Shown here: piece after piece, positions 1,511 through 45,892 of the stretch | How positions within the stretch are numbered: position 1 is the first letter of the stretch | Layout: every line of letters begins with the position of its first letter | The notes under the pieces: model-generated | Seen by the model: only the letters and a program-made list of their open reading frames with translations | What the model was told of the DNA's origin: nothing | The model's database searches: none | Assembly (NCBI GenBank): GCA_045863315.1 | Contig: BTUX01000002.1 | Location: 1-55,998 of the forward strand | Origin: Candidatus Hydrogenedentota bacterium | GTDB taxonomy: Bacteria; Hydrogenedentota; Hydrogenedentia; Hydrogenedentales; SLHB01 | Direction of reading: 5' to 3' | DNA length: 55,998 bases | Position numbers and translations under genes: made by a program

Positions 1511-1711
1511 CTAACCCGGAGCTTTCACGCACACGTGCGTTGGGGGATACACCATCGTACGCCTCGTAGCGTCACGCGTTGTCACGACGCGGCACGGCAA
1601 GACCTGTTGCGGGCGTGATGAATCCTCAATGCTTTCACTCACCAGCGTTCTCCATACCGTTTCTCATCAGTCGCCCGCGTCTACGCGGGCGACTGATGAG
1701 AAACGGTCTAG
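1511..1711 (+). mobile_element. diverged copy (I) of the ~192-nt structured MITE-like repeat
   Basis: CTAACCCGGAGCTTTCACGC...GGGGGATACACCATCGTACGCC...GCGTGATGAATCCTCA...CCGTTTCTCATCAGTCGCCCGCG-TCTA-CGCGGGCGACTGATGAGAAACGG-TCTAG aligns block by block with the copies at 36769, 38351 and 45701. The terminal hairpin is a perfect 23 bp. The P2 helix is partly decayed. Confidence 0.6.
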
Positions 1712-2850
1712 GCGCCCCGCCGCGCGCAACGCGCCAAGAGCTCCGCATACAGCGCGCGGTAGGCGTCAACCATGCGATCCACCGTCAGGTGCTCGCGCAC
1801 GTACGCGCTCGCGCGTCCTGCAAGGCGTGTCCGTTCGGCGGCGTCATCGAGCAAGCCCGCGATCGCATCGGCAAACACCTCGGGCCGGCGCGTTTCCACC
1901 AATCGGCCCGTGACGCCGTCCTGGATGAGTTCCGGGATTCCGCCCACAGCCCCGGCCACGACCGGCGTGCCGGCGGCCATGGCCTCGATGAGCGCGTTTG
2001 GGAACCCCTCGCGCTTCGAGCATAGCACGCACACGTCCATCAGTGCGTATACGTCCGCCAGTTCCGCAATGGCCCATGTGATCGTGAACCGGCCCTCCCA
2101 GTTGCGCGCGTACACTTTTTGCACAACCGACTCTCGCAACGGGCCTTTTCCCGCGAGCAGGAAGTGCAGGTCTGAGCGTCGGCGCATCAGTTCCTCCGCG
2201 ACTGACAGAAACAGCTCATGGTCTTTAACGGGGCTGAAGTTGGCGACCATTCCGACGACGTGGCGGCTCTTCGGCAAGTTGTACCGTTGTCGTAGCGCCT
2301 CGGGACCCATCCGGCTGACAAAGGAATCTGCATCCACGCCGTTGTGTATGACCCGAACCAACTCGGGATCGATTCCCTCCCGTTCGCGAGCGAACTCCGC
2401 CACGGCGCTGCTGTTCGCCACGATGCAGTCGACGTACCGATTCGCCATGCGCTGCATGCGCAGGTGCCGCGGCCGCATCCAATCCGCGAGTTCGCGTCTG
2501 CCCGAAACCAGCACGGGGACTCCCGTTTCGCGGGCCGCGCGGTTGACCGGCAAATCGAATCCGAACAGGAACGTATGCAGAATGTCGGGCCGGTGCGAGC
2601 AAAACACTTGGCGAACCCGCCTGCGGACGGTGAAGTCCCAACCGCCCCATCCCGGCAATTCGCGTACCACGACACCGAGTCGACGTATTTCACCGGCGAG
2701 ATCCCCTGCGGTCCGGGTACATACCACACTCAGCTCGTGATCGTGTACAAGTCCCTTCAAGAGATACACCAGTTGACGCTCGGTCCCGCCCGCGTTCAAC
2801 GTCGGAATCACGTAGCTGATTCGGCGAAGCGAACGGACCTCGGCGCTCAT
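1708..2850 (-). CDS. glycosyltransferase family 4 (GT-B fold)
   Basis: 380-aa ORF. N-terminus ISYVIPTLNAGGTERQ and C-terminal SKREGFPNALIEAMAAGTPVVAGAVGGIPELIQDGVTGRLV (EX7E-type region) are typical of GT4. Confidence 0.85.
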   Translation of the reverse strand: MSAEVRSLRRISYVIPTLNAGGTERQLVYLLKGLVHDHELSVVCTRTAGDLAGEIRRLGVVVRELPGWGGWDFTVRRRVRQVFCSHRPDILHTFLFGFDLPVNRAARETGVPVLVSGRRELADWMRPRHLRMQRMANRYVDCIVANSSAVAEFAREREGIDPELVRVIHNGVDADSFVSRMGPEALRQRYNLPKSRHVVGMVANFSPVKDHELFLSVAEELMRRRSDLHFLLAGKGPLRESVVQKVYARNWEGRFTITWAIAELADVYALMDVCVLCSKREGFPNALIEAMAAGTPVVAGAVGGIPELIQDGVTGRLVETRRPEVFADAIAGLLDDAAERTRLAGRASAYVREHLTVDRMVDAYRALYAELLARCARRGA

Positions 2851-3911
2851 GGCACGGATTCCAGCAACTCGAACAGCCGAGGCGCCGCTTGCCGCAGCGA
2901 GAAGCGCGACTCGATCGTAGCGCGCGCGAATTCGCCCATACGTCGGCGTTCAGCGGGATCGCGTAAGCGGTCGACGGCATCGCGCCACTCGCCCGGCGAG
3001 TCGGCGAACAAACCGTTTTCGCCATGCGAGATGATGTCCAGCACGGCGCCGAACGGCGTCGATATGCAGGGGACCCCGCAGGCCATGTACAGCAGCGCTT
3101 TCAAAGCGCATTTTCCCCGCGACCAATCGTCCTTGGGAAGCGGCATGATTCCGACGCTGAATCGTTGTATCTCGGAGACTTCACCCTCGAGCGTCCAGGG
3201 GCGTATTTCCGCGCTTGCGATAGGTACACGGGCCGGGTCCGCGCCGACGAGGCGGATCGTCGCGTTGGGCAGCCCGCTCAAACCGTCGGCCGCTACTGCA
3301 AGGTGCGGGGTGGTGCTCGGCCCGCCTATCCAGCCCACGCAGAACGCGGTCGGGGCGTCCGCGGCAGGAACGAAGCGGTCCGTGTCCACAACAGTTGGAA
3401 ACAGATGCGCATCGCGGACGTGCGCGCGCGATTCGTCCAAGAGCCAAGCGTTTCCCGCGAGGACAAGGCTCGCCCGCCGCATGATGCGCCGCACCTGATT
3501 GCGGTCTTCGAGAACTGTCCACATACCGCGCAGGGGATGCGGAGGGGCGCGATGGACCGCGTCGTCGAAGTCATAGACCAGCGCCCGCGCCCGCGCGTAC
3601 AACAGCCGGTCCGCACCTCTGAGGTATGCCGTCATGACAGCTTTCTGCACGAAGACTGCATCAAAGGAACCGGCTCCCAGCATTTGGACGATACGCCGCG
3701 GCGTTTCTTTCGCGTGGTACCAGAACGGTCGCCCGGCGCGATTCGGGCCCGAAAGCGATTTCCACTGGGCCTCCGTCACGGCGCTCGCGAAGGTACAGTC
3801 TATCCCGTGGTCTCTCAGGTAGGGAAAGAACTGCGTCACGCGGTACCGCGAACTCGCCGCTCCTTCCGGGTACAAGGTCAGAAACAAGATTTTACGCGCG
3901 CCTGCTCTCAC
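2847..3911 (-). CDS. glycosyltransferase (GT-B, GT1/GT4-like)
   Basis: 354-aa ORF. KCALKALLYMACGVPCISTPFGAVLDIISHGENGLF resembles the nucleotide-sugar-binding C-terminal domain. 4-nt overlap with the downstream GT4 gene. Confidence 0.7.
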   Translation of the reverse strand: MRAGARKILFLTLYPEGAASSRYRVTQFFPYLRDHGIDCTFASAVTEAQWKSLSGPNRAGRPFWYHAKETPRRIVQMLGAGSFDAVFVQKAVMTAYLRGADRLLYARARALVYDFDDAVHRAPPHPLRGMWTVLEDRNQVRRIMRRASLVLAGNAWLLDESRAHVRDAHLFPTVVDTDRFVPAADAPTAFCVGWIGGPSTTPHLAVAADGLSGLPNATIRLVGADPARVPIASAEIRPWTLEGEVSEIQRFSVGIMPLPKDDWSRGKCALKALLYMACGVPCISTPFGAVLDIISHGENGLFADSPGEWRDAVDRLRDPAERRRMGEFARATIESRFSLRQAAPRLFELLESVP

Positions 3912-4893
3912 GGCCCAGGATCTCCCGAGCGCGTCGAAGGACCGCCTCCGTCGAGAGCGATCCCATGCACGACGAGATGTCGAGCGGACACACTCCCTCC
4001 TTTTTCATGGTCAGGCGGTTCCAGCATCCCTGGCATGGGCGGCCATTGGTCATCACGGTCAGCGCGCCGCGGTCTCGGATGAGTATAGTGGGGTCCGTAG
4101 GGCCGAACAACGCAAGCACCGGCGCGCCGACGGCGAGCGCGAGATGCATCAGCCCCGAATCGCAGGTCACGAGCAACCGGGCCGCGCGAAGCAGGGATGC
4201 GGCCTCGCTCACCGTGGTTGCGTTGACCAGCGAATCGACACCGGGAATCTCCTCATCGCCACTGCCCAACTGGACCAGCCGCCGCCCGTCCCGCGCCAGC
4301 CCCACACAAAGTTCCCTCCAGTTTTCGATGGGCCACCGCTTCGTTTCCCAAGTACCGCCGGTGCATACGGCCACGAAACCAGACGGGTCGTCGGCGAAAC
4401 GCTCGAGGTATGCGGATGCCCCCTCGTCGTCGTACACGCGAGGCGGATTGAGTGGGAGCGGAATGCCCGCCACTCGGGCGTAATGTTCGTGGCGGTATAC
4501 GTCGCGAGGCGCGCCTCGCAGCAGAATGTACCGGTCGCACGGCGCCCGCGTCGGCAGGTCGTCCGGTCCGATTACCTGATCCACGCAAGGATTCCCCCGG
4601 ATCAAGTCGGGGTAACTGCACCATACGGACAGGTGGCTATTCGGGTAACGGCGTTTCAAACCCTCGTAAACCGGGATTGCGAGAATCTCGTCGCCCAACC
4701 GCCATCGCACCTCGACGAGAAGCGCCGGCGGTCTGCGCGCGATTCGCTTCCAGGACCATCGGACCGCGCGGACGGCCCGCATCAAACGTCCCACAACCGG
4801 TCCGCGCAATTGATCGTAACTGTCGGCTCTCATGAATACCGGGTCCGTTTTCCTGGCCTTCATGGTAGCGGTAATGAAAAATGTAGTCGACAA
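3892..4893 (-). CDS. glycosyltransferase family 9 (heptosyltransferase-like)
   Basis: 333-aa ORF. LVQLGSGDEEIPGVDSLVNATTVSEAASLLRAARLLVTCDSGLMHLALAVGAPVLALFGPTDP is the GT9 signature region. Confidence 0.8.
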   Translation of the reverse strand: MSTTFFITATMKARKTDPVFMRADSYDQLRGPVVGRLMRAVRAVRWSWKRIARRPPALLVEVRWRLGDEILAIPVYEGLKRRYPNSHLSVWCSYPDLIRGNPCVDQVIGPDDLPTRAPCDRYILLRGAPRDVYRHEHYARVAGIPLPLNPPRVYDDEGASAYLERFADDPSGFVAVCTGGTWETKRWPIENWRELCVGLARDGRRLVQLGSGDEEIPGVDSLVNATTVSEAASLLRAARLLVTCDSGLMHLALAVGAPVLALFGPTDPTILIRDRGALTVMTNGRPCQGCWNRLTMKKEGVCPLDISSCMGSLSTEAVLRRAREILGRESRRA

Positions 4894-4976
4894 AGGCAGG
4901 GGCGGATACCGGAACCTTCACGTCGGCCGCCCGGCACTCATGGAGCGCCGGAATGCGCAGGGCGCTTGGATAGGAG

Positions 4977-5708: not shown

Positions 5709-5827
5709 TTCCCCATGGCGCCCTTAATTCCGCCAGTGGACTGCCCCCGGTGGTCTCGTCGAACTGCCGTTATGCGATTGAAACAAAAGCTGATAGTATG
5801 AGAAAACCGGGATGGAGGTAGTCGTGT

Positions 5828-6804: not shown

Positions 6805-9000
6805 TTATTGTTCGCCTCCGACCTCGATCCGGCGCGCACTGGTCGTCACGACCTCCCATGCCGCTGCCTCGGCCTTCACGATGTCGCCGTCATTTGATGT
6901 GACGGCGACCGCCATTTTTTTCTCGGGAATGATCGCCACCAGCGCGTACCACATCGTGTTCGAACCGTTATGCCAGTAGTATGCGTGCGGAATGGTTCCG
7001 GTGGGGCCGTAGAGCACCCAACCGCACGCATAGTTGTCGAGGTCAGGTGTGTGCAGAAATTTGTAGGTCTCGCTGGAGAGCAGTTTGCCCTCGCCATGTT
7101 CGCCGCGCAGGTGTTCCGTCGCATACGTACAGAGATCGCTCAATGTCATATGCACGATGCCGGCGGGGCCAATGATAGGGGTATTGTCGTCTTCGTCGCC
7201 CGCCGCGACTTTCCAGCCCAATATCGAACTGTGCCCGCGCGGCTGTTCGAAGGTCTTGTTCGGGCTTTTCGGCGGACCAAACCCCGCGCTCTGAAGTTCC
7301 AGCGGGGCGAAAACTTCCCGTTGCACAAGATCCTCCCACGTTTCGCCGGTCGTCTTTTCAACCATTGCACCCGCAATGGTGTAGCCGGCGTTGGAATAGA
7401 CCATTTTCTCGCCCGACGGGTAGGCCGGTTTCCTGGCGAGCACCTTCAACGCCGCGTCCTGGCGCGCGCGCGTGCGCTCGGGGCCGCGCGGGGGCCTGTT
7501 TCGCGGGGTCAGGAACGAAAAGTTCGCCGGGGCGCCCGCCGTATGCGTCAGCAGGTGTCTGATTGTGACCGGTTTCCAATCTTCGTGGATGGTTGCGTCC
7601 GGAAAGCACTCGCCGATTGTGGTCGACCATTGCATCCGCCCCGCCTCGATTAAGCGCGCGATCATCGTGGCCGTGATTGACTTCGTGATTGACCCGAGGT
7701 GCCATCGATCGCCTATCTCAAGCCGTACTCCGCTTCCCTTCTTCCGCTCGCCGTCAACCGCGGACGCGATGACCTGCCCGTCGACCATCACCATCGCGGC
7801 AAGGCCAACGAGCTTCTTCTCTTCGCGTAGCCGGGGGATCAATTCCTCGATCACAGCGTCAGCCTCCTCGATGGAAATGGAGTTGTGGGTTTCTTCCCGT
7901 TGTTCGCGGCGCTCACGATCCTGGTTCAGGTTGCGGATGGCTCGACGGTTGGCCTCTGTCATGGGGACGTCCTCGAGGGTACGCGGCGTAGTTGACCCGA
8001 ACGGAAGCACAACGAGCGTGACGGAATCCTTCGGTTGGTGTCCCATCTGCGCCAAAACCTCGACCAGATCTTCCTCGAACCGCTTCCGCCACTTGTCTCC
8101 ATAGGTTTTCCTACAGAATGCGACGATCTCGGATGCGGGAATACCGTCCAGCGAAATAAGCCTGTGCCACTCGTCGCCGACTTTGACTTCCGGTTGGGCT
8201 GCCTCCCATCGCACCGCGGCGAACGGCGATTTCTTCGGAAAATCCTGTTCCCGTCCGGCAAACAGAAAAATGCCCCCTACACCAACAAACAGGAGCGCCG
8301 CGGCGCACAGGCTCGCAATCATCGTTCGCCGGCGCGAGTACACGCTCGTTGCACCCAGGAGCATAGGATACTCGTCGCTCGCTTCGCTCCCCGTTTCATC
8401 GCCAAGACGTGTGAGCAGCGCGAGCAGTTCCTGGCGTTTCGGTTCCTGCCGCTTACGTACCACGAGAAGATCCACGAAATAAATGAAAGAATAGAGGGCC
8501 AAAACAAAGAAGCATAGAGCCGACGCGGACCCGAGGATCTCTCCCCGGTTATCCGACTTCAGCCAGGAAACATGGACAAAAAACGCCGCCATCGCAAGCG
8601 CCATCGGCAGATGGTACCACCAAATACAATTCCGTTGGAACCAGATTTGATGTTCCACCAGGGCCAATGAGTCCTTTACGGAGTCAAGCAGCGGCTTACC
8701 TGAATCGCGCAACGCCGGCTTGCGGCGCATTCGAACCACGACAACGAAGCCGACGCCCCACATAATGGCCGGCACCATGAGCCACCACGACCACGGCGAC
8801 CCGGTCGCAACGCCAAGATAAATCCACAACGGCAGCAACACCAGCGATATGCCCATTACACCGAAATCGTTGAACGAGATTGCCACCCGAGATTCTTGCC
8901 GTGAACGCCGCACCGCTTTCAGCAGCAAGTCGGCATTGACCGTGACCCGTGTCTTTGAGGATTCCGACTTCCAGGCCCGCTGAAATTCGTCAGGGGACAT
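6805..9000 (-). CDS. membrane-anchored anti-sigma-like protein with C-terminal serine beta-lactamase/PBP-like hydrolase domain
   Basis: 731 aa. The start overlaps the sigma gene stop by 11 nt. About five hydrophobic TM stretches are present (VMGISLVLLPLWIYLGV, WWLMVPAIMWGVGFVVVV, LPMALAMAAFFVHV, ALCFFVLALYSFIYFVDLLVV, IASLCAAALLFVGVGGIFLFA). The C-terminal domain carries SITK (SxxK) and YSNAGY (YxN) motifs of the class-C beta-lactamase/DD-peptidase fold. Confidence 0.8.
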   Translation of the reverse strand: MSPDEFQRAWKSESSKTRVTVNADLLLKAVRRSRQESRVAISFNDFGVMGISLVLLPLWIYLGVATGSPWSWWLMVPAIMWGVGFVVVVRMRRKPALRDSGKPLLDSVKDSLALVEHQIWFQRNCIWWYHLPMALAMAAFFVHVSWLKSDNRGEILGSASALCFFVLALYSFIYFVDLLVVRKRQEPKRQELLALLTRLGDETGSEASDEYPMLLGATSVYSRRRTMIASLCAAALLFVGVGGIFLFAGREQDFPKKSPFAAVRWEAAQPEVKVGDEWHRLISLDGIPASEIVAFCRKTYGDKWRKRFEEDLVEVLAQMGHQPKDSVTLVVLPFGSTTPRTLEDVPMTEANRRAIRNLNQDRERREQREETHNSISIEEADAVIEELIPRLREEKKLVGLAAMVMVDGQVIASAVDGERKKGSGVRLEIGDRWHLGSITKSITATMIARLIEAGRMQWSTTIGECFPDATIHEDWKPVTIRHLLTHTAGAPANFSFLTPRNRPPRGPERTRARQDAALKVLARKPAYPSGEKMVYSNAGYTIAGAMVEKTTGETWEDLVQREVFAPLELQSAGFGPPKSPNKTFEQPRGHSSILGWKVAAGDEDDNTPIIGPAGIVHMTLSDLCTYATEHLRGEHGEGKLLSSETYKFLHTPDLDNYACGWVLYGPTGTIPHAYYWHNGSNTMWYALVAIIPEKKMAVAVTSNDGDIVKAEAAAWEVVTTSARRIEVGGEQ

Positions 9001-9669: not shown

Positions 9670-9757
9670 GGCATGCCGGGTTGTGACGAGGCATGACGGT
9701 TTGCGTTGTACGACGTTGAATCCTCCAATGCGCGCGGGCAGGAAGAATACGGGTTAG
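9670..9757 (-). mobile_element. partial, diverged 5' half of the MITE-like repeat (copy A'), head-to-head with copy A
   Basis: Minus strand reads CTAACCCGTATTCTTCCTGCCCGCGCGCATTGGAGGATTCAACGTCGTACAACGCAAACCGTCATGCC. This aligns with CTAGCCCGGATTTTTCACACCCGCGGGCAATGAAGGATACAACTTCGTGCGGCACATACCTTTATGC. No matching 3' half was found. Confidence 0.45.
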
Positions 9758-9948
9758 CCCGGATTCTTCCTTGCCGCGCGCCCGGTGGGATACAACTTCG
9801 TGCGGCACATACCTTTATGCAGCGACAGGGAAAACGGGCTGTTGGTGTGAAAAATCCTCAACCGATTGACTTGTATGCTATCTCCTGAGCATTTCTCACC
9901 AGTTGCTCCCCGTCAACGGGGGGGCGACTGGTGAGAAATGCGGGTTAG
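9754..9948 (+). mobile_element. MITE-like structured repeat, copy A (chimeric 5' end)
   Basis: TTAG...TTAG flanks. From GGATACAACTTCGTGCGGCAC onward it matches the main family, including the terminal hairpin (apex variant TTGCTCCCCG-TCAA-CGGGGGGGCGA). The 5' P2 strand is the variant GGATTCTTCCTTGCC. Confidence 0.75.
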
Positions 9949-9990
9949 CCTGCATTTCGACGGGAGCGACCGGTGAGAAATGCGGGTCAG
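9949..9990 (+). repeat. extra truncated hairpin arm of the same repeat family
   Basis: CCTGCATTTC-GACGGGAGCGACCGGTGAGAAATGCGGGTCAG repeats the 3' arm of the hairpin directly after copy A. Most of the 5' arm is missing. Confidence 0.5.
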
Positions 9991-11859: not shown

Positions 11860-11922
11860 CTAACCCGCATTTCTCGCCAGTCGCTCCCGTCATCGGGAGC
11901 GACTGGCGAGAAATGCGGCTAA
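11860..11922. repeat. solo hairpin module (copy B) of the MITE-like repeat family
   Basis: CTAACCCGCATTTCTCGCCAGTCGCTCCCG-TCAT-CGGGAGCGACTGGCGAGAAATGCGGCTAA forms a hairpin of about 27 bp. It is flanked by direct CTAA. The right CTA is the complement of the TAG stop of the ORF at 11919-12122. Confidence 0.75.
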
Positions 11923-26924: not shown

Positions 26925-27111
26925 TTCCCTTACCGGATGCAGTCGAGAAACGCGCATGACCGTCCCTTTCCCCGTGCCGTCGTACTTCGAAGCGTGCTTC
27001 GCGAGTATAGCACTGCGGACCAAGCAGCAGAAGCGGGAAAAACCCAGTAAGTCGCAAGCGGTCCCCAAAGCAATGCAGATTACCGTTGGACAGCGTGACA
27101 AAGCGACAGTT

Positions 27112-27306
27112 CTAACCCGCATTTCTCACCAGTCGCTCCCGATGACGGGAGCGACTGGTGAGAAATGCTCAGGAGATAGCATAGAAGTCAATCGGGTGAG
27201 GATTTTTCACACCAACAGCCCGTTTTTTGCCCTGTCGCTGCATAATGGCATGTGCTGTACGAAGTTGTATCCTTCTTTGCCCGAGGGTGTGAAAAACCCG
27301 GGTTAG
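27112..27306 (-). mobile_element. MITE-like structured repeat, copy C (only full-length copy on the minus strand)
   Basis: The plus strand reads CTAACCCGCATTTCTCACCAGTCGCTCCCG-ATGA-CGGGAGCGACTGGTGAGAAATGC...GGATTTTTCACACC...GGTGTGAAAAACCCGGGTTAG. This is the reverse complement of the family consensus with about a dozen substitutions. Confidence 0.8.
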
Positions 27307-28527: not shown

Positions 28528-28726
28528 TTACCCCGGATTCTTCACGCCCACGCGCGTCCAAGGATACAACGTTGTTCAATGCATACCCTCATGTCTCGCC
28601 GGCGCGCGGCCCGGCAAAACTGGTTGTGGGCGTGAAGAATCCTCATCCAACGCGCTCCCATGCGTTATCCAGAACATGTCTCGCCACACCCCCCTCCACG
28701 GGGGAGTGGCGAGTAACGCGGGGTAT
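28528..28726 (+). mobile_element. diverged subfamily copy (D) of the MITE-like repeat
   Basis: TTACCCCGGATTCTTCACGCCCAC...AAGGATACAACGTTG...GTGGGCGTGAAGAATCC...TCTCGCCACACCCCC-CTCCAC-GGGGGAGTGGCGAG...CGGGGTA has the same order of helices with different sequence. Confidence 0.6.
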
Positions 28727-28900: not shown

Positions 28901-29092
28901 GTAGCCCGGATTTTTCATACCCGCGGGCAATGAAGGATTCAACTTCGTGAGGCACATACCTTTATGCAGCGACAGGGAAATCGGGCTGTTGGTGTGAAAA
29001 ATCCTCACCCGATTGACTTCTCTGCCATCACCTGAGCATTTCTCACCAGTCGCTCCCGTCATCGGGAGCGACTGGTGAGAAATGCGGGGTAG
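28901..29092 (+). mobile_element. MITE-like structured repeat, copy E
   Basis: GTAG...GTAG flanks. About 11 differences from copy G by eye. P1, P2 (one G-T wobble) and P3 are all intact. Confidence 0.85.
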
Positions 29093-36768: not shown

Positions 36769-36960
36769 CTAGCCCGGATTTTTCACACCCGCGGGCAATG
36801 AAGGATACAACTTCGTGCGGCACATACCTTTATGCAGCGACAGGAAAAACGGGCTGTTGGTGTGAAAAATCCTCACCCGATTGACTTCTATGCTATCTCC
36901 TGAGCATTTCTCACCAATCGCTCCCGTCATCGGGAGCGACTGGTGAGAAATGCGGGCTAG
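36769..36960 (+). mobile_element. MITE-like structured repeat, copy F
   Basis: CTAG...CTAG flanks. Differs from copy G at 4 of 192 positions. The right-hand CTA (36957-36959) is the complement of the phosphoesterase TAG stop. Confidence 0.85.
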
Positions 36961-38171
36961 TTCAGCGAGAACTGATCGATCGTCGCGCCTTTGTCGTCGA
37001 TGGCCTTGAATTCGAGGCCCGATTTCGACACGTTCACCACCCAGAAGTGCGCGGCGCTTTTCTCTTTCTCATTGTACCAGCGGGGCTGCGGATCGATAGT
37101 CCGAGGTCCCCGCCCGAAACAGCCGTCGCCGACGTACACCGTGCCGCCCTCTGCGACCTGATTGCCTTTCAGCGGTTTGGACCGTTTGAACACGTGATCG
37201 TGGTTCTCGAAGGCGACGGTGAGACCGTACTGGTCGAATAGGGGACCCCAATGCGTGCGGCCCAGCGCCGAGCCTGCGCCGTCAAAGGGCCGGTGCGCCG
37301 GATACAAGGGAACGTGGTACACCGCGAACTTGTATTTGACGTCTTTGTGTTTCTCGAGTTGCGCCTTTAGCCACTCCGTCTGGGCGCCGTTATGCGGGAC
37401 CAGGTGTCCCGAATCGAGAACGAAAAACGCGGCCAGATTTCCGAATTGCCGGCTATAGAAAAGGTTGTCGCCCTGCCGGCCGAACAGGCCGATATACCAA
37501 GGCGCGCGCAGTTCCAGATTGTCGCTCTGATACTGGTTCGTTTCGTGATTGCCGATGGCTGTCATGATCGGCACCATGCGACCGTCGGAGGTCACCATCA
37601 ATTCGTCCCAATTTTTCAGCCACTTGTCCCACGTCGCAAAGTCCCCGAGCAGACCGTTCACATACGCCAGGTCGCCGCCAATCACGCCGAAATCGGGGTC
37701 TTGTTTCCCGGCGAGTTTCAGCAATGGGATGACCAGTCCGTCCGCGCCCATGTCGCCGCCGCTGACGAACCGAAACGGCTCATCGCCGCCTGCCAGCGTG
37801 CGGAAGCGCCGCTCCTTCGACATGCCGTACTTCTGTTCGCCGGCGACGAAATAGTATGTCTTTCCCGGTTCGAGGTTTTTGAGTGCGGCGACGTAAAGCG
37901 TGCGCCGGTCGCTGATCTGCATCACAGCCTTGTGGTATTCCGCCTTCGCGCGATACTTGTACGCGCCGGTATTGCCTCCCCGCGACACCGTGTCGTAGTA
38001 GACATCGGCGGACTCGACGCGGTCGGGGAGAATGACGTTGATATCGATCGACCGCTCCGGCGCTCCCGAGTACGTGAGGTAAATATGCGACGGTTCGGCC
38101 GGCGCCGACACCGCCGCCAACACTGCGAACAAGGCAACCTGTGCGCGCACCATACAATAGACAGTTTTCAT
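36957..38171 (-). CDS. purple-acid-phosphatase-like metallophosphoesterase, exported
   Basis: 404 aa. Signal peptide, N-terminal FN3-like part, then GGDMGADG, GGDLAYVNG, GNHE and VYHVPLYP metallophosphatase motifs. Confidence 0.85.
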   Translation of the reverse strand: MKTVYCMVRAQVALFAVLAAVSAPAEPSHIYLTYSGAPERSIDINVILPDRVESADVYYDTVSRGGNTGAYKYRAKAEYHKAVMQISDRRTLYVAALKNLEPGKTYYFVAGEQKYGMSKERRFRTLAGGDEPFRFVSGGDMGADGLVIPLLKLAGKQDPDFGVIGGDLAYVNGLLGDFATWDKWLKNWDELMVTSDGRMVPIMTAIGNHETNQYQSDNLELRAPWYIGLFGRQGDNLFYSRQFGNLAAFFVLDSGHLVPHNGAQTEWLKAQLEKHKDVKYKFAVYHVPLYPAHRPFDGAGSALGRTHWGPLFDQYGLTVAFENHDHVFKRSKPLKGNQVAEGGTVYVGDGCFGRGPRTIDPQPRWYNEKEKSAAHFWVVNVSKSGLEFKAIDDKGATIDQFSLN

Positions 38172-38350: not shown

Positions 38351-38542
38351 CTAGCCCGGATTTTTCACACCCGCGGGCAATGAAGGATACCACTTCGTGC
38401 GGCACATCCCTTTATGCAGCGACAGGGAAAACGGGCTGTTGGTGTGAAAAATCCTCACCCGATTGACTTCTATGCTATCTCCTGAGCATTTCTCACCAGT
38501 CGCTCCCGTCATCGGGAGCGACTGGTGAGAAATGCGGGCTAG
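38351..38542 (+). mobile_element. MITE-like structured repeat, copy G (used as reference)
   Basis: CTAGCCC / GGATTTTTCACACC / 69-nt loop / GGTGTGAAAAATCC / 31-nt linker / GCATTTCTCACCAGTCGCTCCCG-TCAT-CGGGAGCGACTGGTGAGAAATGC / GGGCTAG. Confidence 0.85.
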
Positions 38543-38834
38543 CCGGAACTCAACCAGATACTCCAAAAAAAGGCGGTCCGAATCCTGTTGAACGTCATCC
38601 ACGTGCTGGGCGAGCGCCTTGAGGCCGCCAATCTCCATATCGTCGAACACAAACTGGTCAGGGTCGAGTAGGCATCGGACAGTCATCTCGGGGTTTCGCC
38701 GAGGACGAGTGGGACTTCGTTCCCTGGCGGCGCGACCCGCGTCAGGGGAAGCGGAGTTTCGTTTCGACCCCGTCAAACGCTTATAATTCGGTCTTCCACG
38801 GCGAATCTTTTCAACTTGTCTCCAGGGGCATTTC

Positions 38835-40787
38835 ATGCGGTCTTGTGGAAGGTGGATCCGCACGCGACGGGCTGCGGCAGTTGTAATACTGTGCGGACGG
38901 GCTTGGGCGGATGCGCCGATCCTGCCCGCAGGAGTTTCCGAACGCCTCGCGCACCGGCAGGCCGACCTCGTGGTGGATCTGGGCGTGGGCCTGTGGGCCT
39001 ATCCGCTTCCCATGGACTTCGACGGCGACGGCGACCACGACCTGGTCGTCGCAACGCCGAACAAGCCGTCCAACGGCGTCTTTTTTTTCGAGAACAAGGA
39101 AGGCGACGTCAAGTTCCCCGTGTTCGAACGTTCTGTTCGCGTGAGCGACGCCGTCTTCGACCTCACCGTATCGTTTCCCCGAGGGGAGGCCGTGGTGCTC
39201 AGTCCCGAAACAAGGTATCCGCGGTTTTCGGAAACGGGCACAGCGGAAGGGCGACCCCTTGGAACCGAGGGGCCGCAGCTTGACGGCAAACTGCGCGGAC
39301 GGCAGTGGATGATGACCGACTACAATGGCGACGGCCGCGATGACCTTGTTGTAGGGATCGGGGTATGGACCGAATACGGATGGGACGACGCCTACAACGA
39401 GAAAGGCGAGTGGACGAACGGCCCGCTCCGGGGCTTTGTGTACGTATGCTTGAACGAGGGAGACGACGCGAGCCCCCGATATGCGGCGCCGGAGCAGGTC
39501 ATGACCGAAGACGGACCTGTCGACGTGTATGGCGCGCCGTCGCCCAACTTCGCGGATTTCGACGGCGACGGCGATCTTGATCTCGTATGCGGCGAATTTC
39601 TCGATCGGTTGACCTACTTCGAAAACATCGGTTCGCGAACGGGGCCGCGCTATGCCAAGGGCCGATGCCTCCAACACCAGGGCGAGGACATTCGCATGGA
39701 CCTTGAAATGCTCCAGGTCATCGCCATGGACTGGGACAAAGACGGCGACGTCGATCTTATCGTCGGGCAGGAAGACGGCCGCGTGGCCCTTGTCGAACAT
39801 GCGGGAGGCGTGGCGGACGGAATGCCGGTCTTTCTGTCTCCGCGTTTTTTTGAGCAGCGCGCCGACTTGCTCAAAGTCGGAGCGCTCAATACTCCGTCTG
39901 CATGCGATTGGGACGGCGACGGCGACGAGGACTTCATCGTCGGAGACACCGCAGGCTACATCAGCTTCGTCGAGAACTTGGACGGAGGCGATCCACCGGC
40001 GTGGGCAAAACCGGTCTATCTCGAGGCGGACGGGAAACGCATACGCATCCAAGCCGGGCCGAATGGTTCAATCCAGGGACCAGCGGAAGCGAAGTGGGGA
40101 TACACGGTGCCGTGTGTTGCTGACTGGAACCATGACGGTCTGCTTGATATCGTGATCAATTCCATCTGGGGCGAAGTGCTTTGGTACGAAAACGTCGGGT
40201 CCAGGACCGTCCCACGGCTCGCCGCCGCTCAGCCGCTCGAAGTGGAATGGGATGGATCGGCGCCGAAGCCGGAATGGAACTGGTGGGACCCCAAAGGCAA
40301 GCAATTGGTGACGCAATGGCGCACGAGCCCCGTCGTGCTGGACCTCGATCGCGACGGCCTGAACGATCTCGTGATGCTCGACCACGAAGGTTTTCTCGCG
40401 TTTTTTCAACGGCAACAAGGCGGCGCCGCTCTTCTGCTGCTTCCCGGAAAGCGCATATTCAAAGACGATGCCGGCAACTTGCTTCACCTTAATCCACACC
40501 GGGCGGGCAAGAGCGGTCGGCGAAAACTGACATTCGCGGATTGGGACGGGGACGGCAAACTCGATATCCTGATCAATGGGGACAGCATCGACCTGATGTT
40601 GAATGTCAGCTCGTCGCCGGACGAGTTCAATTTCCGCATGATGGGGTCCCTCGACGCGCGCAAGGTCGGCGGCCACACCACCTGCCCCACCACTGTCGAT
40701 TGGGATCGCGACGGCATCCCTGACCTGGTGTACGGTGCGGAGGACGGATACTTCTACTACCTGAAGAATCTCCGGTCCGCGAGGTAA
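38835..40787 (+). CDS. FG-GAP/VCBS repeat beta-propeller protein, exported
   Basis: 650 aa. Nine or more D-x-D/N-x-DG-x-x-D repeats (DFDGDGDHDLVV, DYNGDGRDDLVVG, DFDGDGDLDLVCG, DWDKDGDVDLIVG, DWDGDGDEDFIVG, DLDRDGLNDLVM, DWDGDGKLDILI, DWDRDGIPDLVY). Confidence 0.85.
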   Translation: MRSCGRWIRTRRAAAVVILCGRAWADAPILPAGVSERLAHRQADLVVDLGVGLWAYPLPMDFDGDGDHDLVVATPNKPSNGVFFFENKEGDVKFPVFERSVRVSDAVFDLTVSFPRGEAVVLSPETRYPRFSETGTAEGRPLGTEGPQLDGKLRGRQWMMTDYNGDGRDDLVVGIGVWTEYGWDDAYNEKGEWTNGPLRGFVYVCLNEGDDASPRYAAPEQVMTEDGPVDVYGAPSPNFADFDGDGDLDLVCGEFLDRLTYFENIGSRTGPRYAKGRCLQHQGEDIRMDLEMLQVIAMDWDKDGDVDLIVGQEDGRVALVEHAGGVADGMPVFLSPRFFEQRADLLKVGALNTPSACDWDGDGDEDFIVGDTAGYISFVENLDGGDPPAWAKPVYLEADGKRIRIQAGPNGSIQGPAEAKWGYTVPCVADWNHDGLLDIVINSIWGEVLWYENVGSRTVPRLAAAQPLEVEWDGSAPKPEWNWWDPKGKQLVTQWRTSPVVLDLDRDGLNDLVMLDHEGFLAFFQRQQGGAALLLLPGKRIFKDDAGNLLHLNPHRAGKSGRRKLTFADWDGDGKLDILINGDSIDLMLNVSSSPDEFNFRMMGSLDARKVGGHTTCPTTVDWDRDGIPDLVYGAEDGYFYYLKNLRSAR

Positions 40788-40809
40788 TCGGAGCGGTAAG
40801 GGCGCGGTC

Positions 40810-43140
40810 TTGGCAAAGAAAAAGAGAAGAGCGGCGACTTCCCCTTCCATTCCGGCTCCCGTATGGTCGCCCACTTCGCGCCAGGTGGCGCTGGGGTTGC
40901 TCGTACTCGTTCTCGTTGTTTTCGGCGACGTCTTCATCACCGCCAAGGACCTTGTGGCATCCAGCGTCGAGTTCGATGCGAAGATCTACTTCGCGCCTGT
41001 CCGCGAGTTCGCGTATGCCGAAATACTCAGTGGAAACCTTCCGCTGTGGAACCCTTATATTTTCTCCGGCGCGCCGTTTCTCGCAGGCATGCAATCGGCC
41101 CTGCTTTATCCGCTGAACCTGCACTACCTGATATTGCCCCTTGCGAAGTCCTTGAATGTCGAAATAACCCTGCACGTTTTCCTGCTGGGTTTGTTCATGT
41201 TTGCTTGGGCGCGAGACCGCGGCCTATCGACTACCGCTTCGGCGTTTTCCGCTACGGCCCTGATGTTCTCCGGCCCTTACTTCCTTCACGTGATGGCGGG
41301 CCACCTCACGCTCCTGGCCGCACTGGCCTGGACGCCGCTCGCGTTTCTCGCCGTAGACCGTCTGCTCGATACGGAGAGACCGAAGTGGATGTACGTGGGT
41401 GCGCTTGCGTTGACGATGTCCATTCTCGCCGGACACCCGCAAGGCGTGTTCTACACCATGGCGGTCCTAATCCCCTACGCGGTGCTTCGCTCGCTTCGCC
41501 GTTCCGGCAGCGGCAGGGTGATGGTCCCATTGGCCGGCTTGTTCGTCGCACCGCTGTTCCTGGCTGCGGCGCAGCTTTGGCCCGCCCTTGCGTTTTCGGG
41601 CGAGAGCGTCCGCGCCGGCGGCATCTCCTACGCCGCGGCAACGAGTTATTCGTTCCCACCCGAGAACCTGCTCACGCTGATAGTGCCCGCTTTTTTCGGA
41701 GATCATGTCCACACCTCCTATTGGGGGCGATGGGCCTACTGGGAAATGTCCGTCTTTTTGAGTGTCAGCGCCCTCTCGCTTGCCATGTACGCGATATTTG
41801 CCGGCGATAGTCGAACGCGATGGATGTGGCTGGGGTTCGCTGTCGCCTCGTTCCTAGTCGGACTCGGACGGTATACGCCGCTTTCATACCTGCTTTACTA
41901 CTTTATGCCGGGATTTGCTTCCTTCCGCAGCCCGTCCAAGGTCATCTTTTTCACCGTACTGTTCTTGTGTTTGCTTGCCGGTCACGGTTTGGATTCGCTC
42001 GTGCGCCGTCCGGGTCGGGCCCGAATTTTTGCCGCCGGCTCGGCCGTCCTGGGAGGAGGTCTGTTTGCCACGGCAATGGTGATTTACGTCATAACGCGCG
42101 GTGATGGCGAGCTGTGGCGCGGTGTGCTTAACCGAATGTATGTGCCCGGCGACGTATGGTGGGAGTTCTCCGATACGCTCGTGCAGGAATCTGCGGCGAA
42201 CGCCGTCCGATCCCTGATGGTGTCGGCCTTGACCCTGGCGCTTCTGGGAGGCCTGTATTGGGCGCGCGGGAAGACCCCATGGGCGGCGTATGGCGTCGCC
42301 GCCGTAGGTCTTATTGAGTTATTGGTGTTTGCGCGGGCATCGCGTCCCGTTTTTGACCTCGCCTCGACCCGGGTGGAACGGTACGACGCGATGCTGCGCG
42401 AACGGAAGGGAGACGGACGGGTCTTGGATGTGGCGACCGGCAATTATCTCATGCCGATGCGCGTGCCGGGGATGTGGGGATATGACCCCGCGGGCCTGCG
42501 GCGGTACCGTGAATTGCTCGCGCACACACAGGGGCCCCAACCCCTCTACGCAATCAACGAGGTCCGGTTCAATTCGTTTCATCCCTTGTTCGCCATGTTT
42601 CGATGCTACCTCGCGATTCAGTCGTCCGAACCTGACGAACGCACCTTTCCGCAAGACAACCCGCTGCCGCGGTTTCTCGTGTTGAACCGGTACCGAATCA
42701 TCGACGACGCGCACGAACGAATCGCCGCCGTCTGCGATCCCTCGTTCGACCCGCGCCAGGAAGTCATTCTGGAATCTCAACCCGACCCCCTGCCGGACGC
42801 CTCCGGTGCGACCGGGAGTGTGACGGTATTGGCGGAAACAACGGACTGCGTCGAAATCGAGGCCGAAATGTCAGGCGCGGGCATCCTCTTGATGACGGAC
42901 ACGTACGCATCCGACTGGCGGGCCGTGCCGTTACACGCGGGACCGCAGGCGGGCTACGCCGTCATGCCCGCCAACCATGCCCTGCGCGCCATTCCCTTGA
43001 GTCCGGGCAAACACCGGATTCGACTCGAATACGACCCGCCGGCGTTTCGGTACGGTATGTGGGTATCGGTGGCGTCGTTTGTCGCATGGAGTGGAGGGTG
43101 GGCGTACCATGTTCAGCGCAGGGCCCGGCCCAAGCCATGA
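40810..43140 (+). CDS. YfhO-family polytopic membrane protein (GT-C-like)
   Basis: 776 aa and multi-TM. N-terminal FAPVREFAYAEILSGNLPLWNPYIFSGAPFLAGMQSALLYPLNLHYL is the conserved YfhO-type region as I recall it. Confidence 0.75.
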   Translation: MAKKKRRAATSPSIPAPVWSPTSRQVALGLLVLVLVVFGDVFITAKDLVASSVEFDAKIYFAPVREFAYAEILSGNLPLWNPYIFSGAPFLAGMQSALLYPLNLHYLILPLAKSLNVEITLHVFLLGLFMFAWARDRGLSTTASAFSATALMFSGPYFLHVMAGHLTLLAALAWTPLAFLAVDRLLDTERPKWMYVGALALTMSILAGHPQGVFYTMAVLIPYAVLRSLRRSGSGRVMVPLAGLFVAPLFLAAAQLWPALAFSGESVRAGGISYAAATSYSFPPENLLTLIVPAFFGDHVHTSYWGRWAYWEMSVFLSVSALSLAMYAIFAGDSRTRWMWLGFAVASFLVGLGRYTPLSYLLYYFMPGFASFRSPSKVIFFTVLFLCLLAGHGLDSLVRRPGRARIFAAGSAVLGGGLFATAMVIYVITRGDGELWRGVLNRMYVPGDVWWEFSDTLVQESAANAVRSLMVSALTLALLGGLYWARGKTPWAAYGVAAVGLIELLVFARASRPVFDLASTRVERYDAMLRERKGDGRVLDVATGNYLMPMRVPGMWGYDPAGLRRYRELLAHTQGPQPLYAINEVRFNSFHPLFAMFRCYLAIQSSEPDERTFPQDNPLPRFLVLNRYRIIDDAHERIAAVCDPSFDPRQEVILESQPDPLPDASGATGSVTVLAETTDCVEIEAEMSGAGILLMTDTYASDWRAVPLHAGPQAGYAVMPANHALRAIPLSPGKHRIRLEYDPPAFRYGMWVSVASFVAWSGGWAYHVQRRARPKP

Positions 43141-43183
43141 TTCGATTCGTCCATACGTGGCCGGACGGCGTCGCCCAAGCACG

Positions 43184-45568
43184 ATGGCAAGCCACGCCAA
43201 ACCAGACGTCGTGCGCACGGGGCGGGAGCGCAAGCCCATGGCAATGAGGTCGACGCTCCACAGCCGCATCGCGTGGGCGCAATCGTATTCACGCACAGTC
43301 GCGTGTCTAATACTAATGGCGCTCGTGCTTCTCATGTTTGGCGATGTTTTATTCACGGCGCGCGATATCGTCGCGTCCCATAATCAGTACGACGCCAAGT
43401 GCTATTTCGCCGCCGTGCGCAGCTTCGGTTTCGACGAGATTCGCAACGGCAACCTCCCGTTGTGGAACCCGTACATTTATTCGGGTGCGCCCTTTGTCGC
43501 GGGTTTTCAGTCGGCGCTGTTTTACCCGTTGAATTTGCACTATCTCGTCCTACCGCTCGCCAAATCGCTCAACCTGGAAATCGTGCTGCACGTGGGTCTC
43601 GTTGGCGTGTTGATGTTCATGTGGGCGTGCGACCGCGGTCTGTCGACCAAGGCCGCGCTTTTCGCCGCCATCGTCCCCACGTTCTCCGCCCCGTTCTTCC
43701 TCCATGTGATGCCGGGGCACCTCACTATGCTGGGCGCCATGTCGTGGACCCCGCTTGCGTTTATGGCCGTTGACCGAGTTCTAGAGACGCGCCGTGTCTA
43801 CTGGGCCTTCGTGGGGGCGACGGCGCTCACCATGACCATTCTCGCCGGTCATCCGCAGGTTGTATTCTGTTTGCTCGTTGCTCTCGGACCCTACGCGGCG
43901 ATTCGCTGGATGCAGAACCCGCATCGGGCAACCGCCGCGGCACGGCTGGCCTTCCTGTTCGGTGCGCCCGTCTTTCTCGCGGCCGCGCAACTTTGGCCCG
44001 GCATCGCGTCAACAGATGAGAGCATCCGGGCCGGCGGCATGGATTACGCTGTCGCATCGAGCCTGTCGTTTCCGCCCGAGAATCTACTGACATTCTTCGC
44101 GCCCACATTCTTTGGCGATTCCGAAGCGACGACGTATTGGGGCCGCTGGGTCTACTGGGAGTCCTGTGCGTTCATCGGCGTGACCGCATTGTCGCTGGCT
44201 ATGTATGGAGTGGTCGCGGGCCGGCAGCGCGCCCGATACCTGTGGCTGGGCATGGCGCTCGGCGTGATTGCCGTGTCCCTTGGCCGGTACACGCCGTTGC
44301 ACCGCGCGCTGTACGCGGCGGTCCCCGGTTTCGACGCGTTCCGATGTCCGACCAGGCATTTGTTTCTGGCCGTGCCGTTTCTGGCGTTGCTGGCGGGCCA
44401 CGGTATCGATACGCTTTCACAACGCCCCAGGCGTGTGCCCGTATTGGTTTTCACCACGTTTGCCTGCGCAATTGCGATGTTCGTGGCGGCAGGTCTTGTC
44501 GTGTGGGCCGGTGGACAAGGAGATGCGGCGAGCGCATGGGCGCGCCTGTTGGCCTGGATGCACACGCCCGGCGAAAGCCGCTGGAAGTACAGCGACGCAT
44601 GGGTCGCGGCTTCGGCAAACCACGCTGTACGTTCCTTGATTGCAGCGGCGACCACAAGCACTTTGCTTGCCGTCCTGTATCTCGCCGCGCGTCGCCGGAC
44701 TTGGCCCGTCTACGCCATGATCGCCTTGGGAACGCTGGAGCTCATGGTATTCGCGCGAATCTCCCGGCCTTCATTTGATCTCGCGTCCCTCCGGCGGCCC
44801 GAACTCGAATCGTTTTTGCATTCGCAGGGCGGCGATTTCCGCGTGTTCGATCAGACGATCGAGAACTATCCCCTTGAGATCCGCGTTCACGACATGTGGG
44901 GATACGATCCCGCCGCCCGCCGCCGGTACACGCAACTCGTCGCGTATACTCAAGATGCTCGGGCGGAAACCGACTTGAACGAGTTCGGGTTCAAGCAATT
45001 TCATCCGCTGTACGCGATGTTTCGCTGCGAATACGTGATCATGTCGCGGTACAATCCCGACAACGTGGCCCGGCTTGCGAACGTGCTGCCACGGGCCCTG
45101 CTGATAGGCCGGTTCCGTGTGATCGAAGACGAGGACGAGCGCATCCGCGCCGTCGCGGATCATTCGTTTGACCCGAGGGACATTGTCATACTGGAATCCC
45201 AGCCCGATCCGGCGCCCGAGCCCGACGGAGCGGGGGGAGTCATACGATGTATAGACGAATCGACCGACCGCTTCATCGTCGAGGTCGAGGCAACGCGCCC
45301 CTCGATTCTGCTTATCACGGACTCCTACTCGAAGGACTGGCGGGCGACCCCGCTGTCGCAGGGACCTCAATCGCAGTACGAGATTCTACCCGCAAACCAT
45401 GCGCTGCGCGCGATACCGCTCGCCGCGGGGTCTCATCGGATCCGGTTCGAGTATGCGCCCCCCTCGTTCGCGTGGGGCATCCGGACGTCGATCGTCTCGT
45501 TGACCGTGTTCAACGCGGCCTGGATCGGTTGCCTTGTGTTCACGCCGCGACTACGGAAGCCGTCATAG
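43184..45568 (+). CDS. YfhO-family polytopic membrane protein, tandem paralogue
   Basis: Colinear with the preceding gene (FAAVRSFGFDEIRNGNLPLWNPYIYSGAPFVAGFQSALFYPLNLHYL). The start is uncertain: 43184 (MASHAK) or 43238 (MAMRS). The ORF-track start at 43079 overlaps the upstream gene. Confidence 0.75.
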   Translation: MASHAKPDVVRTGRERKPMAMRSTLHSRIAWAQSYSRTVACLILMALVLLMFGDVLFTARDIVASHNQYDAKCYFAAVRSFGFDEIRNGNLPLWNPYIYSGAPFVAGFQSALFYPLNLHYLVLPLAKSLNLEIVLHVGLVGVLMFMWACDRGLSTKAALFAAIVPTFSAPFFLHVMPGHLTMLGAMSWTPLAFMAVDRVLETRRVYWAFVGATALTMTILAGHPQVVFCLLVALGPYAAIRWMQNPHRATAAARLAFLFGAPVFLAAAQLWPGIASTDESIRAGGMDYAVASSLSFPPENLLTFFAPTFFGDSEATTYWGRWVYWESCAFIGVTALSLAMYGVVAGRQRARYLWLGMALGVIAVSLGRYTPLHRALYAAVPGFDAFRCPTRHLFLAVPFLALLAGHGIDTLSQRPRRVPVLVFTTFACAIAMFVAAGLVVWAGGQGDAASAWARLLAWMHTPGESRWKYSDAWVAASANHAVRSLIAAATTSTLLAVLYLAARRRTWPVYAMIALGTLELMVFARISRPSFDLASLRRPELESFLHSQGGDFRVFDQTIENYPLEIRVHDMWGYDPAARRRYTQLVAYTQDARAETDLNEFGFKQFHPLYAMFRCEYVIMSRYNPDNVARLANVLPRALLIGRFRVIEDEDERIRAVADHSFDPRDIVILESQPDPAPEPDGAGGVIRCIDESTDRFIVEVEATRPSILLITDSYSKDWRATPLSQGPQSQYEILPANHALRAIPLAAGSHRIRFEYAPPSFAWGIRTSIVSLTVFNAAWIGCLVFTPRLRKPS

Positions 45569-45588
45569 CAAGAAGGGACCCAAGGACG

Positions 45589-45700
45589 CCGGTCCCGGGC
45601 GCCGAAGGACAGCCACACACGACGATTGCAGGGGCCGGCCATTTCCTCCAAGAGGACAAGGGCGAGGAATTCGCGCGAATCGTAGTTGACTTTATGACGG
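45589..45700 (+). pseudogene. 3'-terminal relic of an alpha/beta-hydrolase (haloalkane-dehalogenase-like) gene
   Basis: PVPGAEGQPHTTIAGAGHFLQEDKGEEFARIVVDFMTA is a typical C-terminal catalytic-His region (GHFxQED). It has no upstream body and is wedged between the YfhO stop (45568) and MITE copy H (45701). Confidence 0.5.
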
Positions 45701-45892
45701 CTGCCCCGGATTTTTCACACCCGCGGGCAATGAAGGATACCACTTCGTGCGGCACATACCCTTATGCAGCGACAGGGAAAACGGGCTGTTGGTGTGAAAA
45801 ATCCTCACCCGATTGACTTCCATGCTATCTCCTGAGCATATCTCACCAGTCGCTCCCGTCATCGGGAGCGACTGGTGAGAAATGCGGGCTAC
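45701..45892 (+). mobile_element. MITE-like structured repeat, copy H
   Basis: CTGC...CTAC flanks. About 7 differences from copy G. The right-hand CTA (45889-45891) is the complement of the pgeF TAG stop. Confidence 0.85.

Follow-up and report, generated by a model that had tools for sequence, protein, structure and literature searches.

What are the short, strongly folding repeats that occupy the gaps between genes in a stretch of DNA from Candidatus Hydrogenedentota, and how did they come to be there? The stretch analysed here, hereafter the window, is contig BTUX01000002.1 in its whole length of 55,998 nt. An initial annotation, made from its letters alone, had described a family of ~192-nt structured repeats with terminal inverted repeats, resembling miniature inverted-repeat transposable elements (MITEs) and recently spread, and this description stands. 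We show below that the repeats carry the ends and the target site of the IS1380 family of insertion sequences (IS), and consider that they are probably a MITE family built from IS1380-family termini and mobilised in trans by a transposase of that family whose gene lies elsewhere.

Eight full-length copies of 192-201 nt each, lettered A to H in coordinate order, were recovered by repeat finding, MAFFT alignment and an nhmmer profile (E 1e-44 to 3e-66), in agreement with the eight first described. Repeat finding in the window returned the 192-nt family and a 57-nt hairpin family, and with the eight-copy nhmmer profile the list grew by two hairpin-only elements, one solo and one truncated, by a partial copy and by two decayed relics. 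Full copies consist of two hairpin modules, module 1 and module 2, described further below. The features are as follows:

Copy A, 1511-1711, plus strand: full element with both modules, from a diverged subfamily with ~62 % identity to F; flanks CTAA / CTAG.
Partial module-1 copy, 9683-9757, minus strand: head-to-head with B, with the TTAG/CTAA tetranucleotide in common; right end lost; nhmmer E 3e-13.
Copy B, 9754-9948, plus strand: full element; flanks TTAG / TTAG, direct and non-palindromic.
Truncated hairpin-only element, 9945-9990, plus strand: internal deletion in the left arm; inserted at the right-hand TTAG of B.
Solo hairpin-only element (module 2), 11860-11922, plus strand: two termini back to back with a 4-nt loop.
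Copy C, 27112-27306, minus strand: the sole full copy on this strand; flanks CTAA / TTAG.
Copy D, 28528-28726, plus strand: full element from another diverged subfamily, the second, with ~61 % identity to F; flanks TTAC / GTAT.
Copy E, 28901-29092, plus strand: young subfamily; flanks GTAG / GTAG, direct and non-palindromic.
Copy F, 36769-36960, plus strand: young subfamily, reference copy; flanks CTAG / CTAG.
Copy G, 38351-38542, plus strand: young subfamily, between the divergent genes 36957-38171 (minus) and 38835-40787 (plus); flanks CTAG / CTAG.
Copy H, 45701-45892, plus strand: young subfamily; flanks CTGC / CTAC.
Decayed relic, ~48738-48838, minus strand: module 1 only, interior resembling subfamily A; right terminus GTGAGGAATGCGG; nhmmer E 3e-6.
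Decayed relic, ~50818-50935, plus strand: module 1 only, bounded directly by termini, CTAC then CCCGCCTTTTTCACACGC on the left and GCGTGCGAAATGCGG then TTAC on the right.

These 13 copies and fragments lie within 56 kb, about one unit per 4-6 kb, their flanks do not align with one another, and their summed length of 1,991 nt makes up 3.6 % of the window, slightly above the ~3 % estimated before. The initial list was sound for what it contained and left out the two relics at 48738 and 50818: the solo hairpin at 11860-11922 was found again by nhmmer, the partial inverted copy put at about 9670-9757 is present with the better limits 9683-9757 on the minus strand, and the extra half hairpin put at 9949-9990 is the truncated hairpin-only element that starts from the right TTAG of B. 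The elements, 55-200 nt long, are all without coding capacity, as expected of MITEs, which are short (below ~300 bp) and non-coding. As to strand, seven of the eight full copies are on the plus strand (two-sided binomial p ~0.07), or 8 against 3 when module-1 fragments are added; this bias is not significant, and a bias would be unexpected for a symmetric cut-and-paste element.

The copies fall into distinct age classes. Copies E, F, G and H are 92-98 % identical to each other (94-98 % had been judged by eye), with F and G differing at 4 of 192 positions (97.9 %), exactly as had been counted; C reaches 90-93 % and B 85-88 %, and A and D are 60-63 % identical to the other copies and to each other. 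This indicates that a single subfamily is young and that two or more are old. The initial annotation had thus rightly singled out the copies at 1511 and 28528 as far diverged; the third one that it named, at 9670, is the partial module-1 fragment 9683-9757. A 20-nt core matches the window 15 times where 0.12 matches are expected, and two patterns taken from invariant alignment columns match it 8 times each where none is expected. We count the presence of near-identical copies (92-98 %) at unrelated loci, in a core-gene context, in favour of a MITE family.

The initial annotation had also named assembly joins or collapsed repeats as what would undo its reading, and independent data were available from Logan short-read contigs of six other samples carrying the same species. 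These contigs reach or cross the same element/flank junctions at 99-100 % identity for the copies checked, namely A, B, C, D, E, F and G and the truncated and solo hairpins, and so support the loci. Copy A is spanned whole by L027-L029, D by L025 and the truncated hairpin by L042; junctions are seen for B in L027 and L042, for C in L025/L026, for the left end of E in L025 and for F and G in L001/L002. Logan contigs of this species end 26-110 nt inside the young copies, at the window's own junctions. Breaks in young copies together with read-through of diverged ones are the behaviour of genuine multi-copy repeats, and the recurrence of every copy checked in all six samples shows that the insertions are fixed in all sampled populations. 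The nearest other genomes are ~70 % identical at the protein level (the best public ortholog of the metallophosphoesterase encoded at 36957-38171, 70 % identical, comes from Hydrogenedentes metagenome-assembled genomes, MAGs), and orthologous empty sites are not alignable.

The left end CCCGGATTTTTCAC and the right end GTGAGAAATGCGGG agree at 12 of 14 positions, and terminal inverted repeats are therefore present; conservation extends to the outer stem and to both hairpins. The agreement at 16 of 18 positions noted initially is correct as a count, although it took the outer CTAG to be part of the inverted repeat. The flanks of B (TTAG/TTAG) and E (GTAG/GTAG) are direct and non-palindromic, where an inverted repeat would give TTAG/CTAA; those of F and G read CTAG/CTAG, those of H (CTGC/CTAC) match at three of four positions, and those of the solo hairpin are probably CTAA/CTAA, provided that one G is missing from its right terminus. 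The outer CTAG is therefore a 4-bp target duplication lying outside the inverted repeat, and the element proper runs from CCCG to CGGG. Where one of the near-identical young copies departs from CTAG at position 1 (E) or position 4 (H) on the left, its right tetranucleotide shows the same departure in direct orientation, and because these two positions vary together directly, what is duplicated is 4 bp and not the 2-bp TA.

The right-hand tetranucleotide often coincides with the end of a gene. It holds the stop codon of the glycosyltransferase gene 1708-2850 (minus) at copy A, the TAG stop of the metallophosphoesterase gene 36957-38171 (minus) at F, where it reads CTAG, the TAG stop of gene 45889-46644 (minus) at H, and the TAA stop of the S41 peptidase gene 50932-52458 (minus) at the relic at 50818. 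At 61 % GC, it is at stop codons that the genome offers CTAG-like sites outside coding sequence, and we count these three or four coincidences for a MITE family as well. Copy B adds a further case of target choice, as it is the centre of a cluster in which the partial copy abuts it head-to-head at a common TTAG and the truncated hairpin sits in its right-hand TTAG; such tandem and head-to-head insertions at the duplicated TTAG fit a site-specific inserter that re-uses a regenerated target.

In ISfinder, the IS1380 family, prokaryotic relatives of piggyBac, is marked by termini starting with CC and by a duplication of 4-5 bp. We reached ISEcp1 via blaCTX-M-15 and used the transposases of ISEcp1 and IS1247 in tblastn searches of 72,556 plasmids; nine family members were retrieved and their ends located, and five transposases were tested on NCBIfam NF033539 (IS1380 family transposase), all with scores of 389-431 bits. 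Termini of these elements are given below, with the flanking CTAG in brackets where present and right ends as reverse complements:

ISBdi2: left (CTAG) CCCGTCTTATTCGT; right (CTAG) CCCGTCCTATTCGT.
ISSp1: left (CTAG) CCCGCCTTATTCACC; right (CTAG) CCTCTCTTATTCACG.
Bradyrhizobium barranii element: left (CTAG) CCCGCCTTATTCGC; right (CTAG) CCCGATCTATTCAC.
Microvirga element: left CCCGCATTTCCCAAA; right CCGACATTCCCCAGA.
IS1247: left CCCACATTTCCCAAG; right CCTGCATTCCCCAAG.
ISEcp1: left CCTAGATTCTACGT; right CCTAAATTCCACGT.

Written in the same way, the window termini are (CTAG) CCCGCATTTCTCACC and (CTAG) CCCGGATTTTTCACA. Compared in register from the terminus, they agree with those of ISSp1 and of the B. 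barranii and Microvirga elements at as many as 12-13 of 15 positions, a score of at least 12 of 15 being attained by random 15-mers of the window at a frequency of ~2e-4, and they share all four positions that are invariant among 12 IS termini (C1, C2, T8 and C12). The relic at 50818 is identical to the left terminus of ISSp1 at 13 of 15 positions. The match of the termini, together with flanks that read CTAG or one-off variants of it, makes the ends and the target of the window repeats of IS1380-family type. The initial annotation had recognised no named family in the sequence; this holds in that no named MITE or Rfam family matches, and the repeats are nevertheless no orphans, given IS1380-type termini and duplication. 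Within the IS1380 family itself, the IS1247 copy in plasmid pTK5 of Sphingobium sp. TKS (L034, 501-2183) is bounded by TGTGAT and ATCACA in a perfect palindrome with no obvious 4-bp direct repeat, and an Enterobacter copy (L033) has the unrelated flanks TTAA / ATAT, so that target duplication in the IS1247 branch may differ from that of the CTAG group.

A 20-nt hairpin/terminus pattern matched reference genomes at no fewer than six loci (L003-L008), about four being expected by chance. A true relative among them is L005 (1574-1756) in a Gemmatimonadales MAG (DATNOH010000125.1), a ~175-nt element that has CTAG on both sides and runs from CCCGCATTTCTCACCAGTCGCC to CCCGGTGAGAATTGCGGG. Its terminus CCCGCATTTCTCACCAGTCGC is identical over 21 nt to that of the window elements, and its interior is unrelated, GC-rich and palindromic, nhmmer matching the terminus only. 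The same terminus with an unrelated interior is what would be expected when related transposases create MITEs independently, and L005 gives the impression of a MITE that arose independently, in another phylum, from the same transposase lineage. That different phyla carry independent MITEs with one and the same terminus suggests that an IS1380 subgroup ending in this way is widespread. A short imperfect hairpin with the same left terminus in Pseudoxanthomonas sp. 3HH-4 (L008, 6511-6572) is a probable relative, and single intergenic termini were found in a Singulisphaera MAG (L006, 916-936) and a betaproteobacterial MAG (L007, 6569-6589); these three could be decayed copies, one-ended events or chance matches. 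L003 and L004, both inside genes, were rejected as chance matches. In JGI metagenomes an exact 25-mer had no match, and the two matches of the invariant-column pattern, in 32 % GC contigs, were dismissed as chance; viral contigs gave no match, and copy F, searched at E <= 10 in plasmid and phage collections, gave chance matches of 23-28 nt only. The element was also absent from ~170 kb of the nearest orthologous loci in Hydrogenedentota (L009-L024), where synteny is too weak to bring empty sites into comparison.

The internal anatomy of the repeats goes beyond a pair of termini. The 192-nt unit folds alike on either strand (-91.5 and -92.7 kcal/mol, z -9.8 and -8.1) into an outer stem CTAGCCC/GGGCTAG, a long stem-loop that is module 1 (arms GGATTTTTCACACC) and a near-perfect 23-bp hairpin that is module 2 (arms GCATTTCTCACCAGTCGCTCCCG). 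Module 1 is ~115 nt long, and module 2 measures 55 nt and consists of two termini placed back to back. Each unit has four instances of the motif G(G/C)ATTT(T/C)TCAC, oriented -> <- -> <-. Module 2 stands alone, with full termini, in the solo hairpin and in the truncated copy at 9945, and module 1 stands alone in the relics at 50818 and 48738. As each module is also found by itself, we infer that the 192-nt unit, first described as a single repeat with terminal inverted repeats, originated as a composite of two smaller foldback elements. The inner termini of the composite read TGAG in place of CCCG and are presumably dead. Copy B is chimeric, since its first ~35 nt (CCCGGATTCTTCCTTGCC...) are unlike those of all other copies and closer to the abutting inverted partial copy. 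At 9725-9785 the left end of B mirrors this partial copy in a large palindrome centred on TTAG, which suggests recombination or templated repair between head-to-head ends.

The window itself encodes no machinery that could move these elements. Some 40 of its open reading frames (ORFs) were scanned with Pfam and are ordinary chromosomal genes, including carA, RNase PH, rdgB, rpiB, a ctpA-like peptidase, a xanthine-dehydrogenase cluster, glycosyltransferases, a fucosidase, ECF sigma factors and acyl-CoA synthetases. Neither a transposase nor an integrase nor a reverse transcriptase was among them, as the initial annotation had stated, and no Y1/RAYT gene was found either. The only open frame of the element is a minus-strand one of 63 codons, open through the whole element and stopping at the TAG of the terminal CTAG, and its pseudo-peptide, searched against 5.8 billion proteins, matched nothing but the spurious ORF of the window itself. 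A public protein collection includes a 'protein' of 111 aa called through copy G (P0121; ~38351-38686, minus), which is almost certainly spurious. The repeats are a dense, lineage-restricted MITE family, non-autonomous in the host sequence examined.

From these observations we infer the following course of events. An element devoid of genes, starting with 5'-CCCG(G/C)ATTT(T/C)TCAC, ending in the inverted complement and flanked by a 4-bp NTAN duplication, mostly CTAG, would have its two outer termini bound by an IS1380-family DDE transposase supplied from elsewhere in the Hydrogenedentota genome. The transposase would excise the element and paste it into a new CTAG-like site through a 4-bp staggered cut. 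At the 61 % GC of this genome, the sites used would often be TAG stop codons, and the duplication would restore the stop. With inner termini that lack the terminal CCCG, only the outer pair would be usable, and the whole unit would move together.

Several observations weigh against this proposal. The nine IS1380 transposases used as tblastn queries had no match in the window, in 8.3 kb of additional host DNA (L027), which brings the host sequence covered to 64 kb, or in the relatives' loci, and no autonomous element with these termini was found in the plasmid and phage collections at 19 nt identity or more. L006, L007 and L008 have no recognisable partner end and no transposase adjoining. No polymorphic empty sites were seen in the Logan contigs of the six samples, so that mobility is deduced from anatomy and not observed, and the older copies A, C and D and the relic at 50818 have non-identical flanks that match at two to three of four positions. 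The pairing of the arms is a further difficulty. In the eight-copy alignment, 93 % of cells pair, and both-sided changes occur in 11 of 57 pairs; shuffles yield 3.2 +/- 1.3 such pairs, with none of 500 attaining 11, and slid registers yield 1-6. From one subfamily to the next, the internal arms of both hairpins change in step with the outer termini, which is not explained by a transposase that needs the outer ends only. Subterminal inverted copies were absent from the genuine IS1380 elements examined, and on this ground the idea that the modules are inherited IS end structures was rejected.

The covariation of the arms raises the question of whether the hairpins themselves are functional. In the terminal hairpin, 7 of 23 pairs show swaps from one Watson-Crick pair to another, and one pair shows a one-sided change. 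Possible causes are intrastrand-templated homogenisation of palindromes, a requirement for folded ends, or a role of the hairpin at the RNA or DNA level; with eight sequences, five of them close relatives, these causes are not separable. That the internal arms, which cut-and-paste should not require, keep perfect Watson-Crick pairing through ~40 % divergence would fit a transposase acting on folded (hairpin or cruciform) ends, or 3'-end RNA hairpins co-opted by the host at TAG stops. We regard a functional role of this kind as unlikely; in either version, the repeats could be an early bacterial MITE family of the piggyBac-related IS1380 lineage, with its terminus in at least two phyla.

Another DDE family with CTAG-like targets could in principle have supplied the ends of the MITEs. 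The IS5 group has termini starting with GG or GA and a 4-bp YTAR duplication, here set against the window ends by description only. The duplicated CTAG, TTAG and CTAA would fit such a YTAR target; the window termini, however, start with CC and match IS1380 termini base for base. For the IS630/Tc1-mariner group, likewise compared by description and duplicating the TA inside CTAG in the manner of Correia-type elements, the nearly invariant central TA is as in IS630 targets, but the direct co-variation of tetranucleotide positions 1 and 4 (E, B and H) marks a 4-bp duplication, at odds with duplication of TA alone. An origin from either group is in our view quite unlikely.

Alternatively, the repeats may be, or may have become, functional structured RNAs, for example a small RNA present in many copies, or hairpins at 3' ends by which transcripts nearby are stabilised or terminated, so that their structure would be conserved for a role at the RNA level. 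The very stable predicted structure, covariation above both controls, the placement of several copies at convergent gene ends or directly past stop codons, and the invariance of some module-1 loop columns even in copies of 60 % identity are all in keeping with this. The two strands nevertheless fold equally well, the copies are not consistently oriented with respect to flanking transcription (A and B antisense, C sense), no promoter or intrinsic-terminator consensus was found inside the copies, and related Hydrogenedentota lack the element over the ~170 kb mentioned above. The Rfam check proposed in the initial annotation matched no family: at the gathering threshold tRNA-Val was the only match in the window, and a sensitive scan of copy F gave generic hairpin matches only (9-23 bits, for thresholds of 35-150). 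We therefore hold this explanation to be very unlikely. A hammerhead-like CUGAUGA...GAAA in copy A was likewise rejected, as it has no stem II and no Rfam match.

REPIN-like elements, doublets of palindromes that form single-stranded hairpins and are spread by a single-copy RAYT (HUH/Y1) reading hairpin and flanking tetranucleotide, resemble the window repeats in several ways: the hairpins are long and near-perfect on both strands, nearly every compensatory change is a Watson-Crick one, the tetranucleotide at the flanks is similar to the GTAG found in REP sequences, intergenic density is high and seven of eight full copies share a strand. Such a mechanism would need inverted tetranucleotides, yet those that are informative stand in direct orientation; the termini are like those of a DDE family, the window has no Y1/RAYT gene and the strand bias is, as said, not significant, all of which makes a REPIN-like origin highly improbable. 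Finally, that the copies are artefacts of collapsed or mis-joined repeats, as the breaks of short-read contigs at young copies might suggest, can be dismissed for every copy checked, because the breaks recur at identical junctions in six independent samples, A, D and the truncated hairpin are spanned whole, and every copy has its own substitutions and its own flanks.

Some features of the neighbouring genes deserve mention in their own right. The gene 26559-27122 (minus) weakly matches the family of 23S rRNA intervening-sequence proteins, at 24.8 bits for a cutoff of 33.8, and its longest ORF begins 11 nt inside copy C, the true start being probably further downstream. Two AMP-binding (acyl-CoA synthetase-like) tandem paralogues, 52595-54178 and 54239-55831 (minus), share several blocks of 73-82 % DNA identity at a spacing of 1,635 nt, and two adjacent large membrane-protein paralogues, 40810-43140 and 43079-45568 (plus), have weak YfhO-like C-termini and a 59-nt block at 76 % identity. 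ARAGORN placed an 89-nt tRNA-Gly at 8204-8292 (minus), inside a 731-aa beta-lactamase-family ORF (6805-9000); the tRNA model of Rfam, applied at its gathering threshold, does not find it, and the call is probably a false positive.

The identification of these repeats as MITEs with IS1380-type ends places a dense non-autonomous transposon family in a phylum without cultured members, with many hundreds of copies per genome if the window is representative, and ties it to the IS1380/piggyBac lineage, with the same 21-nt terminus in a second phylum. ISEcp1, the best-known member of this lineage, mobilises blaCTX-M genes. There are practical consequences too, as young copies break every short-read assembly of the species into 1-2 kb pieces and the elements seed spurious gene calls, such as the one through copy G; recognising the family would help the binning, scaffolding and annotation of Hydrogenedentota genomes. 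Insertion at TAG stops with regeneration of the stop represents a gene-sparing target choice in a GC-rich genome.

Among known systems, the IS1380 family (ISBdi2, ISSp1, IS1247, IS1380A, ISEcp1) has in common with the window elements the CC(C)G termini, the motif CCCGC.TT.TTCAC and the 4-bp CTAG duplication. The IS are 1.6-1.7 kb long with a transposase gene, whereas the window elements measure 55-200 nt without one and contain additional, inverted copies of the terminus, folded into long hairpins. In eukaryotes, piggyBac MITEs have a TTAA target, a 4-bp duplication and CCC...GGG termini, and piggyBac is regarded as a eukaryotic relative of IS1380. Compared by description only, these MITEs are similar in their TA-centred 4-bp duplication, their CCC start and their nature as non-autonomous deletion derivatives, and differ in that the host of the window elements is bacterial and their target CTAG-like rather than TTAA. 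Correia elements of Neisseria, RUP, Nezha and ERIC are likewise 100-200 nt long and dense between genes, with inverted-repeat termini, hairpins and a TA-containing target. The termini of Correia elements are unrelated, however, and no annotated plasmid or phage record resembles the window element; Correia elements duplicate TA only. REPINs and BIMEs, associated with RAYT, share the hairpin doublets of a short repeat, the mosaic modular build and a flanking tetranucleotide, but the tetranucleotide of the window elements is a direct duplication, their termini are of DDE type and the window contains no RAYT gene. The Gemmatimonadales element has the 21-nt terminus, CTAG on both sides and a similar length, and differs in interior and phylum. 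The repeats are thus a fresh example of a well-known kind of mobile DNA, one that leaves the workings of MITEs as they are known unchanged.

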